64,000 bases of DNA from Escherichia phage KarlGJung. The notes under the pieces are model-generated. The model saw only the letters and a list, made by a program, of their open reading frames with translations, had not been told where the DNA came from and did not search any database. Position numbers and translations under genes: made by a program. Within the stretch, counting starts at the first letter, position 1. The number at the start of each line of letters is the position of its first letter. Shown here piece by piece: positions 1 to 34,198 of the stretch. Location: sequence record MZ501089, one strand, 5' to 3'.

Positions 1-349
1 CACCGCATTCAAGGTCTCGCATCATCACCCGACGCAAAACTTCAACATCATCTTTTTTACCGTCAGTAATATATCCAGTTAATTCCTCAATTGCCGCATT
101 TCCAGTCAATTTCCGAGTAGCTAACGTGAATTCAATGAAGTCGAGCATATCTGTAAGAGTCAACATTCCAAAACTCTGGGTAGCAATACCAGGTTTAGGC
201 CATTTCTTGATATAATACTGTAACCCACGAGAATAAGTCAGACGATATACTCGTTTAAGCAATTCATTATCTTTATTCTTTTCAAGAATTGCTTGCTTCT
301 GCTTAGTTGAACCAATAGATGCTATTTCGTTCAGAATTTTAAGAATCAT
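1..349 (-). CDS. 30: DNA ligase, N-terminal part (gene runs off the window start)
   Basis: Minus-strand ORF starting at ATG 347-349 and continuing past position 1; my translation begins MILKILNEIASIGSTKQKQAILEKNKDNELLKRVY..., which matches the T4 DNA ligase N-terminus as I recall it. Not in the ORF track because truncated. Confidence 0.8.
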   Translation of the reverse strand, partial: MILKILNEIASIGSTKQKQAILEKNKDNELLKRVYRLTYSRGLQYYIKKWPKPGIATQSFGMLTLTDMLDFIEFTLATRKLTGNAAIEELTGYITDGKKDDVEVLRRVMMRDLECG

Positions 350-29722: not shown

Positions 29723-32692
29723 ATGGCTACTTTAAAACAAATACAATTTAAAAGAAGCAAAACCGCAGGTCAACGTCCTGCTGCTTCAGTATTAGCCGAA
29801 GGTGAATTGGCTATAAACTTAAAAGATAAAACAATTTTCACAAAAGATGACTCAGGTAGTGTTATAGAATTAGGTTTAAAATATGGAGGAACTATAAATG
29901 GGTCTTTAGAGGTTACAGAAAATATAACTGGAACTTTAATTGGAAATTCTAGCACAGCTACTAAATTGCAAACACCTAGGAAAATTAATGGTATATCTTT
30001 TGATGGGTCAAAAGATATCACGCTAACTCCATCTGACATAAATGTCAATAGCACAACATTTATAAAAAATAATGGCGAATTACCTACTGATGCTAATTTA
30101 GATACGTATGGGCCCATTGAAGAATATCTTGGTGTTTGGTCGAAATCTACTTCAACAAATGCGCAACCAGCAAATAAATTCCCAGAAGAAAATGCCGTAG
30201 GTGTACTAGAAGTATTTGTGGCCGGCCAATTTGCTGGCACTCAGCGTTATACTGTAAGATCTGGTAACGTCTATATTCGTTCCTTATCTGCTAAATGGAA
30301 TGGCGTCGATGGTCCATGGGGTGTGTGGCGTAATGTTCAAGCGTCAACTCGTCCACTTTCACAAACGATTGACCTTGATAGCTTGGGAGAATTAGAACAT
30401 TGTGGCTTATGGAGAAACAGTTCAAGCGCAATCGCATCATTTGATCGCCATTATCCAGAAGAAGGATCAGCCGCACAAGGATTTTTAGAAATATTTGAAG
30501 GTGGTTTATACGCAAGAACGCAGCGTTATACTACCCGCATGGGTATGGTTTATACTCGTTGTCTCGCTGCTGCATGGGATGCTAGTGCACCTAAGTGGGA
30601 GGAATGGAAGCAGGTTGGTCATGGCACACCAGCGACTTTCTATGATGGAGATCTGAATGATTTTAAAACTCCTGGGTTATATAACATTTTAGGCACTGAT
30701 GCCGTTATTAACTGTCCTACTGGTGAAGGTTTACCAGCCGTTATTGTTGGTTTGCTGGAAGTTAAACAGCGTGCTTCTGGTGGTGCTATTTTCCAAAAAT
30801 TTACTACTGCCGGAACGGGTGCAACTACTCGCGATCGTATTTTTGAGCGTGCATATACTGGTGGTGCGTGGGGCGCATGGAACGAAGTATATACATCTTA
30901 TTCTCTTCCAATTACTTTGGGTATGGGTGGTATTAAAGCTCAATTAGCGGAGTTAGATTGGCAAACCTTTGATTTTGTTCCTGGTAGTATGTTTAGCGTT
31001 CCTTTGAACAAAATAAAGAACATGCCAGCAAATATGGATTGGGGGACGATTGACGGAAACTTGGTTATGTTTTCCGTTGGTCCTAGCGAACACACTGGCA
31101 CAGGGCGTACTGTTCAAGTGTGGCGCGGTACTGTATCTCAGGCGAACTATCGTTATTTCGTTGTTCGTATCGCTGGTAATCCAGGAAGTAGGACTAATAC
31201 TTGTCGTCGTGTTGTTGTGGAAGATGGTCGCCACACATGGACAGCACAGCAAGATTTTAATGGTGCTGTCAACTTTGGTGGTTCGACAACTTTTAAGTCC
31301 ACTACAACTTTTAACACAGAAGTTAAATTCCGTTCATCCAATGCATTTAAAATGTATGGCGGTAATTTTGGCACAATTTTCCGTAATGATGGTGAAAGTC
31401 TTTATATTCTTTCCACCGACGAAAATGATCAAGATGGAAACTTTAATACAAATAGACCTTTCCGCTATCAATTAAAAACTGGCGATGTTACTTTGGGTGG
31501 CACTAGCGGTGCTAACGCTTTAGTATTAAAAGGCGGTTCTCTTGCTGCTACCTTTAGCGGTGATGTTAATTTAAGTAAAGGTACGCTGACGTTTGAAGCG
31601 GGTGGTAAGCAATCACGCGATTATTTCCGGTTTAATCATTGGGGTGATAGCAATAACGCTCGTGATAACATTATTCAGTTAGAAGATAGTAAAGGCGCTC
31701 ATTTTTCCACTGAACGTACTTTAGCGACGGGTGCAATTAAAACTAAGTTCTTTGGTGAAGTTGAATCCGATGGTCGATTGACTATTAAACGTCCTGGTGA
31801 TTCTATTGTATTATCAACAACTGCTGGTAATGCTTTGCATATTCGTGGTGACATAGACGGGACTGGTAACTGGTATATTGGTAAGGGTGGTGCTGATAAT
31901 TCGCTAGCATTTTATAGCTATGCTTCTCAGGCGGCAGTACATATCACAAACAATGGTGAGATTGCGTTAAACCCGCAAAATACCGCAATGGTTAACGTTA
32001 ACCGTGACCGTGTACGCATTAACGGTTCTGGATGGATTGCTAGACAACCGGGTGATTGGGGCAACCAATGGCGAGTAGAAGCTCCATTATTCGTTGATCA
32101 TGGTTATGTTTCACAGGATTGTTATTATCCTATTCTTAAAGCAAGAAGCGTTATAACCAATCAAGGATATAGCACCGCTGTTGACTTTGGTATGCGTCGT
32201 ATTCCATCACAGTGGGGGCAAGCAATCATTCGTGTCGGATCCACGGAGGCTTCTCCTGATGCTGGACACCCACAAGCTGTGTTTGAATTCCATCATGATG
32301 GATTCTTTTATACACCAGGAAATGGTAGCTTTAGCGATGTGTATATTCGTTCTGACTCCCGTCTCAAGATTAATAAAGAAGAATTAGAATATGGAGCGGT
32401 CGAAAAAGTTTGCCGACTGAAAGTTTATATTTACGATAAAGTTAAGTCTATTAAAGACCGTAGTGTTATTAAACGTGAAGTTGGTATTATTGCTCAGGAC
32501 CTTGAAAAGGAATTACCGGAAGCTGTATCTAAAGTTGAAGTTGATGGATCTGATGTTCTGACAATTTCTAACTCTGCTGTGAATGCTCTTTTAATTAAGG
32601 CTATTCAGGAAATGAGTGAAGAAATTAAAGAATTGAAAACGCCTCTCTTTACTAAAATTGCTCGCAAAATTAGTAAATATTTTAAATTCTAA
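29723..32692 (+). CDS. 37: gp37 long tail fiber distal subunit with C-terminal chaperone-like domain
   Basis: 989 aa; N-terminal region similar to gp36/gp34 N-termini; C-terminal roughly 115 aa begins at an SDSRLK motif followed by predicted helical segments. Confidence 0.9.
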
Positions 32693-32728
32693 CAACAAGG
32701 GGGAAATGCCCCCTTTGGAGTATAAATT

Positions 32729-33511
32729 ATGGCAGTAGTTGGTGTTCCTGGTTGGATTGGAAGTTCAGCCGCAAATGAAACAGGACAGCGCTGGATGAGT
32801 CAAGCGGCTGGTCAATTAAGATTGGGTGTTCCTTGCTGGATGAGTCAATTTGCAGGTCGCTCACGAGAAATTATTCACACGCTTGGAGCAGACCATAACT
32901 TCAATGGTCAATGGTTCCGAGATAGATGTTTTGAGGCAGGTAGTGCACCTATAGTGTTTAATATTACGGGTGATTTAGTATCATATTCTAAAGATGTTCC
33001 TTTATTCTTCATGTACGGAGATACACCAAATGAATATGTTCAGTTAAATATACATGGCGTAACGATGTATGGACGTGGCGGTAATGGTGGTAGCAATAGT
33101 CCTGGCTCAGCTGGAGGTCATTGTATTCAAAACGATATTGGTGGGAGACTAAGAATTAATAATGGTGGAGCTATTGCTGGCGGCGGTGGCGGCGGTGGCG
33201 GCGGATATTATTCTCCTTTTTCACAAATGAGATTAACCTTTGGCGGTGGTGGTGGGCGTCCGTTTGGTGCACCTGGCGGATCTATTGATATGCAATCAGG
33301 CGCAACTGCTGGTACTATTTCTGCACCTGGCTCAGGATCCGTGAATGGTATCTATAATGGTGGAAACGGTGGTGAAGTAGGTTCCGCGGGAGGTAGATGC
33401 AATATTCGCGGTCAAGGATCTGAATATAATGGCGGCGCTGCTGGTTATGCTGTCATAGGGTCTGCTCCAACGTGGCAAAATGTTGGAGCAATATATGGTC
33501 CAAGAGTATAA
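32729..33511 (+). CDS. 38: gp38 receptor-binding adhesin, glycine-rich (T2/T6-type)
   Basis: 260 aa with several glycine-rich motifs ([50 protein letters not shown]) separated by short variable segments; directly follows gene 37. Confidence 0.85.
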
Positions 33512-33541: not shown

Positions 33542-34198
33542 ATGGCAGCACCTAGAATATCATTTTCGCCCTCTGATATTCTGTTTGGTGTTCTAGATCG
33601 CTTGTTCAAAGATAACGCTACCGGGAAAGTTCTTGCTTCCCGGGTAGCTGTCGTAATTCTTTTATTTATGATGGCGATTGTTTGGTATAGGGGAGATAGT
33701 TTCTTTGAGTACTATAAGCAATCAAAGTATGAAACATACAGTGAAATTATTGAAAAGGAAAGAAATGCACGCTTTGAATCTGTCGCCCTGGAACAACTCC
33801 AGATAGTTCACATATCATCTGAGGCAGACTTTAGTGCGGTGTATTCTTTCCGCCCTAAAAACTTAAACTATTTTGTTGATATTATAGCATACGAAGGAAG
33901 ATTACCTTCAACAATAACTGAAAAATCACTTGGAGGATATCCTGTTGATAAAACTATGGATGAATATACAGTTCATTTAAATGGACGTCATTATTATTCC
34001 AACTCAAAATTTGCTTTTTTACCAACTAAAAAGCCTACTCCCGAAATAAACTACATGTACAGTTGTCCATATTTTAATTTGGATAATATCTATGCTGGAA
34101 CGATAACCATGTACTGGTATAGAAATGATCATATAAGTAATGACCGCCTTGAATCAATATGTGCTCAGGCGGCCAGAATATTAGGAAGGGCTAAATAA
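33542..34198 (+). CDS. t: holin T
   Basis: 218 aa; one N-proximal TM helix (VAVVILLFMMAIVWY) and a large C-terminal domain; matches T4 T holin size and position after gene 38. Confidence 0.9.
   Translation: MAAPRISFSPSDILFGVLDRLFKDNATGKVLASRVAVVILLFMMAIVWYRGDSFFEYYKQSKYETYSEIIEKERNARFESVALEQLQIVHISSEADFSAVYSFRPKNLNYFVDIIAYEGRLPSTITEKSLGGYPVDKTMDEYTVHLNGRHYYSNSKFAFLPTKKPTPEINYMYSCPYFNLDNIYAGTITMYWYRNDHISNDRLESICAQAARILGRAK

Follow-up and report, generated by a model that had tools for sequence, protein, structure and literature searches.

The protein encoded by gene 38 of Escherichia phage KarlGJung (record MZ501089) is very probably a T6-type monomeric receptor-binding adhesin with Tsx as its primary receptor, judging by its likeness to alleles of known phenotype. 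For the window, i.e., the whole stretch of 64,000 nucleotides that was analysed, the reading frame, the family membership, the fold, the architecture of the partner gp37, and the identity to characterised alleles are established here.

A tblastn search with gp38 against 50,697 phage records found a homologue in 837 of them. The protein is 100% identical in 12 records, including IP008, Shigella phage JK23, Yersinia phage fPS-65 (two records), Escherichia phage U115, ES19/ES21, and APTC-EC-2A, and the fibre locus of the window, which is of the Tequatrovirus kind, is ~96–97% identical to the best full-length records. In Enterobacteria phage IP008, the identical protein is encoded with 4 synonymous differences in 783 nt, whereas its gp37 has 854 residues versus 989 in the window (135 aa longer), at ~86% nucleotide identity over most of the gene; the synonymous sites and the longer, diverged gp37 led us to reject the idea that the window phage is IP008 itself. 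Bas36 (Paracelsus) is almost as close, since 259 of the 260 residues are identical, with 2 nucleotide mismatches and an identical specificity domain, and the one difference, S39I, lies in the N-terminal attachment domain. The gp38 proteins of CM8 and RB14 are 98.8% and 98.5% identical to that of the window, respectively. Alignment to T6 gp38, a check proposed in the original prediction, gave 244 of 260 identical residues (about 93%). Only 5 of the 17 differences fall in aa 116–260, all of them in the specificity domain, namely S165P, D187N, A194G, A199S, and N234D, and the loops are nearly identical; the layout of motifs and loops is the same, with one extra Gly at position 109 in T6. The window protein carries the T6 set of four hypervariable segments (HVSs), with those 5 substitutions. 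Nearly all Tsx-binding adhesins have one common set of four HVSs, and T6-like adhesins including RB14 were placed in the Tsx group by Trojet et al. (PMC3157838).

The receptor of this allele family is documented by genetic evidence in the literature. Published screens give Tsx as the primary and LPS heptose I as the secondary receptor for JK23, Bas36, CM8, and RB14. For Bas36, Tsx is listed as primary receptor and deep-core LPS as terminal receptor (Maffei 2021, supplementary table), and the four phages were assigned to Tsx/HepI by RB-TnSeq, with tsx among the top-scoring genes for JK23 and CM8 (bioRxiv 10.64898/2026.04.02.716166, supplements). Replacement of the CM8 gp38 by the EV240 allele switched the receptor completely to OmpA, and T2 acquires the host range of IP008 together with the IP008 fibre genes (Mahichi 2009, cited through PMC6509161). 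As Tsx dependence and swap phenotypes are taken from work on identical and near-identical alleles, we infer by analogy that the window phage behaves in the same way. The original prediction had claimed binding to an outer-membrane protein and a role in host range, which the published data on JK23, Bas36, CM8, RB14, and IP008 support. It had also named a swap phenotype as decisive, and such phenotypes, published for the allele family (CM8, IP008), speak for the interpretation; the receptor, which it had left open, would be Tsx as in the near-identical phenotyped alleles.

The practical result is a confident annotation as a T6-type, Tsx-primary adhesin, which rests on identity to phenotyped alleles. 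The gp38 family, its mechanism, and this exact allele were already characterised, and the Tsx receptor was already known. There is no new biology beyond annotation; the one item of modest novelty is that loop B occurs naturally as a perfect duplication, between the two poly-Gly runs, in Yersinia phage ZN18. In therapy and diagnostics, gp38 is the main lever for predicting or re-engineering the host range of T-even phages.

Gene 38, its predicted fold, and its partner gp37

The coordinates of all features are collected in Table 1. According to the list of open reading frames of the window, gene 38 runs from an ATG start to a TAA stop on the + strand and encodes 260 aa, exactly where a 260-aa frame after gp37 had been predicted. 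Its start lies 36 nt past the gp37 stop and its end 30 nt ahead of the holin gene t, within the gene order g36-g37-g38-t deduced from reading frames and Pfam matches.

Table 1. Features of the fibre-tip locus in the window. Loop limits were taken from a HMMER alignment to 9V85 combined with the PP01 loop definitions (PMC12892980), and all of them are approximate.
Feature	Residues (aa)	Position (nt)	Strand	Basis or remark
Gene 37, distal long-tail-fibre subunit	989 aa	29723..32692	+	ORF; Pfam Gp34_trimer and Peptidase_S74
gp37 C-terminal intramolecular chaperone (113 aa)	877–989	32351..32689	+	Peptidase_S74 at aa 877–935
Intergenic g37-g38 stem-loop with the GGAG that follows		32697..32720	+	Sequence and fold; core GGGGG-AAATG-CCCCC (32699–32713)
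Shine-Dalgarno GGAG		32717–32720	+	8 nt upstream of the gene 38 ATG
Gene 38, long-tail-fibre tip adhesin, T6 type	260 aa	32729..33511 (including stop)	+	ORF; PF21721 and PF05268; identical alleles
N-terminal attachment domain	1–46	32729..32866	+	Pfam Gp38_N; conserved Trp W9, W22, W37
Beta-helix segment	47–115	32867..33073	+	Strands with pLDDT >90 in the model; superposes on PP01 and S16 gp38
Specificity domain	116–244	33074..33460	+	Gly statistics; invariant Gly columns; 9V85 alignment; fold match
Loop A	~121–125			GSNSP
Gly9 coding run	151–159	33179..33205	+	Two overlapping copies of GGCGGTGGCGGCGG
HVS2/loop B segment (12 residues)	160–171	33206..33241	+	Segment duplicated in Yersinia phage ZN18
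Loop B	~161–170			(letters withheld)
Gly5 coding run	172–176	33242..33256	+	Third direct-repeat copy, 12/14 bases, 51 nt from the 33191 copy
Loop C	~184–189			GSIDMQ
Loop D	~205–209			VNGIY
Loop E	~225–232			NIRGQGSE
Conserved C-terminal motif (16 residues)	245–260	33461..33508	+	Near-invariant columns P247, W249, G253, I255, Y256, G257
Holin gene t		33542..34198		Pfam Phage_holin_T, 1e-116

Glycine makes up 62 of the 260 residues of gp38 (23.8%) and 46 of the 135 residues between aa 116 and 250 (34%). This enrichment is far beyond chance, because gp38 ranks first among the 70 reading frames of the window that encode 100 aa or more, whose median glycine share is 5.2% and whose runner-up reaches 11.1%. 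Twelve runs of at least two Gly were counted, as well as seven segments in which Gly occupies 3 or more of 5 residues (aa 114–122, 126–130, 149–161, 170–178, 180–184, 210–222, and 235–239), so that the predicted figure of at least four glycine-rich motifs was correct and conservative. The GC content is ~50% across 33075–33450 versus ~30–40% in the flanks.

The hairpin between g37 and g38 has a folding energy of −14.8 kcal/mol and a z-score of −1.75, which is only weakly better than shuffled sequences. A scan of the + strand found no g38-specific sigma-70 promoter or intrinsic terminator, with a tool that excludes T4 late promoters. In the window, positions 32697–32728 read as the stem-loop, then GGAG, then TATAAATT adjoining the ATG of gene 38. 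The latter is similar to the consensus of T4 late promoters, TATAAATA; it is too near the start codon to serve g38 as a promoter.

Profile, solved-structure homologues, and predicted fold agree in placing gp38 among the T2/T6/S16-type tail-fibre adhesins, an assignment made from sequence and model. Pfam Gp38_N (PF21721) covers aa 1–42 (E 6e-20, 71.4 bits) and the GP38 adhesin family (PF05268) covers aa 47–260 (E 3e-72, 243.4 bits) over profile positions 1–218 of 218, both far above the curated cutoff of 25 bits that applies to either family. The PDB sequence search returned the receptor-binding domain of PP01 gp38 (9V85, E 5.5e-79) and S16 gp38 in the gp37-gp38 tip complex (6F45 chain D, E 1.2e-49). 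An AlphaFold2 model built on 56 homologues reached a mean pLDDT of 87.4, with values >90 over nearly all of aa 51–260 and lower ones in the N-domain. When this model was compared to the PDB by Foldseek, it matched 9V85 with a TM-score of 0.88 on the target and an rmsd of 2.3 Å over 222 columns, and no entry other than 9V85 and 6F45_D was found below E = 1. According to these predictions, gp38 has the three-part fold described for such adhesins (PMC12892980): an attachment domain, a beta-helix, and a polyglycine-II sandwich with distal loops. The T2/T6-type tip architecture put forward in the original prediction is supported, also by the structure prediction that it had proposed as a check, the model matching only the PP01 and S16 adhesins.

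The specificity domain is modelled as glycine motifs forming a polyglycine-II lattice that is interrupted by variable receptor loops. Among the 56 homologues, 22 Gly columns are invariant in the C-terminal half of gp38 and the segments between them have no majority residue; alternation of glycine-rich motifs with hypervariable segments is the pattern described by Trojet et al. (PMC3157838). W9 and W22 of the attachment domain are also invariant among these homologues. The coding region of this domain contains two pairs of imperfect direct repeats, 32790–32813 with 32835–32858 (GCTGGATGAGTCAA..., encoding RWMSQ and CWMSQ) and 32741–32757 with 32825–32841 (GGTGTTCC.GG.TGGAT, encoding GVPGW and GVPCW), which amount to an internal repeat of a Trp-containing "prong" motif.

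The partner subunit fits this picture. The N-terminal 64 aa of the window gp37 are 75% identical to T4 gp37, and a Pfam gp37_trimer match stays below its cutoff. At aa 872–883 there is a candidate autocleavage motif, DVYIR(876)/SDSRLKI, of the kind described for the fPS phages and aligned to the S16 site DLNVS^SDRRIKK (PMC7917993). By analogy with S16 and the fPS phages, gp37 is predicted to be autocleaved after DVYIR876, exposing the docking surface for gp38, and the fragment released would have 113 aa, the size in S16. Since gp37 ends in an S74 chaperone with an upstream cleavage motif, the fibre locus has the complete T2/T6/S16 architecture.

One gp38 allele is found on gp37 proteins of 989 aa (window), 854 aa (IP008), and 982 aa (Paracelsus), whose central parts are strongly mosaic, whereas ~60 residues at the N-terminus and, at the C-terminus, the tip and the chaperone are conserved. 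Such a combination of one adhesin allele with varied shafts is what one would expect if the adhesin is a module and its docking tip is conserved. Three contigs from IMG/VR, with lengths of 177 kb (L056:1201–1725), 31 kb (L070:1186–1707), and 36 kb (L069:1192–1698), encode proteins of 168–174 aa with a Gp38_N domain (Pfam E 1e-15 to 6e-22) and C-terminal parts that are unrelated, not glycine-rich, and without a Pfam match. In L056 and L070 these genes directly follow fibre genes ending in ND[VT]YIRSD, and the fibre of L070 is collagen-like with an S74 chaperone domain according to Pfam. Socket (the cleaved tip) and plug (gp38_N) thus seem to move as a pair, on which different adhesin heads are placed, also outside T4-like phages.

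Rearrangement at the glycine-coding runs

Besides its role in the protein, the glycine-rich part of gene 38 is of interest at the DNA level. Three copies of a 14-nt direct repeat lie in the poly-Gly coding runs: GGCGGTGGCGGCGG is found at 33182 and again at 33191, and the variant GGCGGTGGTGGTGG at 33242, the last two copies being 51 nt apart. The motif cited in the original prediction, GGCGGTGGCGG, is present at two places and no more (33182 and 33191), and the sequence of the second run is GGCGGTGGTGGTGGG. The gp38 of Yersinia phage vB_YepM_ZN18 (MN716856), to which an IMG/VR locus is identical, has 277 aa and contains a perfect duplication of 17 residues, comprising loop B and Gly5 (L020:1662–1778, equivalent to window 33191–33256). 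Tandem Repeats Finder (TRF) gave it a period of 51, 2.3 copies, and 100% matches. Both junctions fall within the poly-Gly runs, and the period is the same as the distance between the repeats in the window. Among the matches listed, one unbroken alignment of 834 nt was obtained only with the two ZN18 records; the others aligned in two pieces over 783 nt, without the duplication. The host of ZN18 is Y. pseudotuberculosis. It is possible that the duplication is an assembly artefact; in the searchable literature, incidental citations of the phage and no description of the duplication were found.

The other length variants among alleles at least 98% identical are those of PYps32T, with 3 extra codons in the Gly9 run, and D5505, with one Gly codon fewer in the Gly5 run. 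More widely, in ~160 homologues, the longest stretch of Gly has between 4 and 10 residues. The duplication in ZN18 and the small run indels of these two phages give concrete sequence-level support to the view that glycine motifs mediate rearrangement, which is a long-standing idea (Tetart 1998, cited after PMC3157838). A published cross between CM8 and EV240 bears on the same point, given that "only the distal half from HVS2 onwards" was exchanged despite 250-bp flanks outside the gene, which places the crossover in or just before the Gly9 run.

Recombination was also followed at synonymous sites, by counting mismatches at third positions of codons with identical residues in a codon alignment of ~40 gp38 alleles and evaluating them with 500 permutations. 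Relative to the window, T6 has 36/67 mismatches inside the interval delimited by codons ~39 and 118 vs 23/165 outside (0/500 permutations). The pattern is similar for locus L027, with 37/65 mismatches inside the interval between codons ~108 and 239 vs 19/97 outside (0/500). Single breakpoints were obtained for L022 at codon ~90 (13/82 before vs 58/96 after, 0/500), for L019 at codon 115 (1/105 before vs 19/139 after, 13/500), and at codons ~47–49 for L021, in which a different N-terminal domain has been exchanged as a unit (11/22 before vs 36/200 after, 7/500). The signal for PST against the window was not significant (106/500 permutations). Several of the breakpoints coincide with glycine motifs (115–121 and near 235–239). 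All-site scans of the diverged loci L023 and L027 gave breakpoints at codons 158–159, which are weak evidence for a hotspot because the hypervariable region begins there too.

An alternative reading is that the poly-Gly runs have no raised recombination rate: glycine would be kept for the polyglycine-II helices, breakpoints would fall there as the sole remaining homology, and a breakpoint could not be resolved within an invariant stretch. The synonymous scan lends it some weight, as significant breakpoints were found outside the glycine motifs, at codons ~39–49 (the domain linker) and ~90 (the beta-helix), by which the proposition that breakpoints occur only at glycine motifs was rejected; moreover, the sample of ~40 alleles is small and localisation to conserved blocks is an inherent bias. 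Several findings speak against this reading: three of three indels in near-identical alleles lie inside the two poly-Gly runs, the ZN18 junctions and period follow the repeats of the window, the longest run varies among homologues, and the crossover of the CM8 × EV240 cross fell at HVS2. We consider it a real possibility, yet a somewhat doubtful one.

In the alleles compared, the stretch 33180–33260 is demonstrably liable to slippage and to unequal exchange, and a crossover at this site is plausible. The recombination hotspot that had been predicted there stands in so far as all three close-allele indels lie inside this stretch, one of them being a perfect duplication. Breakpoints were also placed outside the glycine motifs, however, and in quantitative terms the label "hotspot" is unproven, since the localisation of breakpoints favours conserved blocks. 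One could go further and regard the repeats bracketing loop B (33191–33204 and 33242–33255) as a built-in cassette for unequal crossover, generating variants of loop copy number, such as the 17-residue duplication of ZN18, as an adaptive route to hosts without Tsx. Its closest analogy is the host-range-expanding duplications reported for the T4 fibre adhesin, and we regard this idea as quite unlikely.

Two further observations concern the mosaic structure of the gene. Over window positions 32843–33082, in the beta-helix segment, the DNA of T6 is ~74% identical to the window, as compared to ~95% across most of gp38, and changes at synonymous sites approach saturation; here PST and ZN18 resemble the window. 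Accordingly, either the T6 or the window lineage would have acquired an internal segment that does not bind the receptor (codons ~39–118) from a diverged donor. In eight IMG/VR loci (L030, L032–L035, L037, L039, and L040), the specificity domain is ~70% identical to the window at the amino acid level and the beta-helix ~41%, the reverse of the usual conservation, which points to a distant backbone carrying a T6-like specificity domain.

Receptors outside E. coli

The host range of phages with this allele raises the question of whether Tsx is the relevant receptor, or the only one. The adhesin might instead act through OmpA, another beta-barrel protein, or LPS, or it might be polyspecific like the adhesin of PST. 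Phage fPS-65, whose gp38 is identical, infects 33 strains of Y. pseudotuberculosis and also Y. pestis; its receptor in Yersinia is heat-stable and resistant mutants were found only in hldD and hldE, i.e., in heptose synthesis (PMC7917993). Y. pseudotuberculosis is without a Tsx homologue, and a few changes in HVS2 and HVS3 of a T6-like adhesin add recognition of OmpA and Yersinia (Trojet et al., PMC3157838). IP008, again with an identical gp38, is described as a broad-host-range phage in PMC6509161.

Nonetheless, in E. coli K-12 tsx is required by JK23, Bas36, CM8, and RB14, whose gp38 is identical to that of the window or at least 98.5% so, and the heptose mutants are accounted for by HepI as secondary receptor, which the gp12 short tail fibres read. 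The residues of PST implicated in Yersinia/OmpA recognition (R, I, I) are missing from the window allele, where the T6 residues Q166, M167, and G207 are found instead, and on this account a PST-like, Yersinia/OmpA-adapted variant was rejected. A primary receptor other than Tsx, or additional to it, is therefore rather improbable in our opinion, and Tsx remains the preferred assignment. In hosts other than E. coli, the window-type adhesin must bind something else or be dispensable, because fPS-65 infects the Tsx-less Y. pseudotuberculosis with an identical gp38.

Proposed mechanism and comparison with known systems

In the mechanism that we propose, the gp37 trimer would fold first and its 113-residue C-terminal intramolecular chaperone would then cleave itself off after DVYIR876. 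One gp38 molecule would plug its N-terminal domain (aa 1–46), with the conserved tryptophans, into the exposed fibre tip, while the remainder would fold into a short beta-helix and, from the conserved glycine motifs, polyglycine-II helices packed as a lattice. Five variable loops would be held at the distal end of the lattice. In E. coli their partner would be Tsx, the nucleoside channel, at its extracellular loops, and adsorption at this primary stage would be reversible, after which the short tail fibres (gp12, encoded elsewhere) would bind inner-core heptose of the LPS. If the loops bind Tsx in this way, their sequences would determine the primary receptor and much of the host range with it. 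In the DNA, the glycine motifs would serve as short, near-identical GGY repeats, at which diverged alleles can recombine by homology and a single allele can change by slippage or unequal crossover.

The T4-type reading, in which gp38 is a non-structural assembly chaperone of gp37 that is absent from the virion and gp37 itself carries the receptor-binding tip, has one positional support, the location downstream of g37, and an echo in the T6 record, which still labels T6 gp38 "distal long tail fiber assembly catalyst", but it is practically out of the question, being refuted by BLASTP against the 183-aa T4 gp38 (NC_000866; E = 1.6 and a best alignment of 5/12 residues, i.e., no similarity, in line with the original prediction, which had set gp38 apart from the T4-type chaperone), by the Pfam comparison (the GP38 domain is missing from T4 gp38, and T4 gp37 has Collar and Phage_fiber tip domains where the window gp37 has neither and ends in Peptidase_S74), and by the match of the predicted fold to virion-bound adhesins crystallised on the gp37 tip.

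What gp38 of T4 and of the window have in common is the gene name and the position between g37 and t. Their sequences are unrelated, T4 gp38 is not glycine-rich, and the annotation of the T4 record does not count it as a virion component. The resemblance to the OmpC-binding adhesins is of the opposite kind, with a common fold and different loop sequences. S16 gp38 (6F45_D) matches the window protein with a Foldseek E of 5e-22 at 43% identity, and Salmonella phage S16 uses OmpC as receptor. PP01 gp38 (9V85) is closer (Foldseek E 7e-27, 66% identity), and it binds OmpC of E. coli O157, whereas the window allele belongs to the Tsx group.
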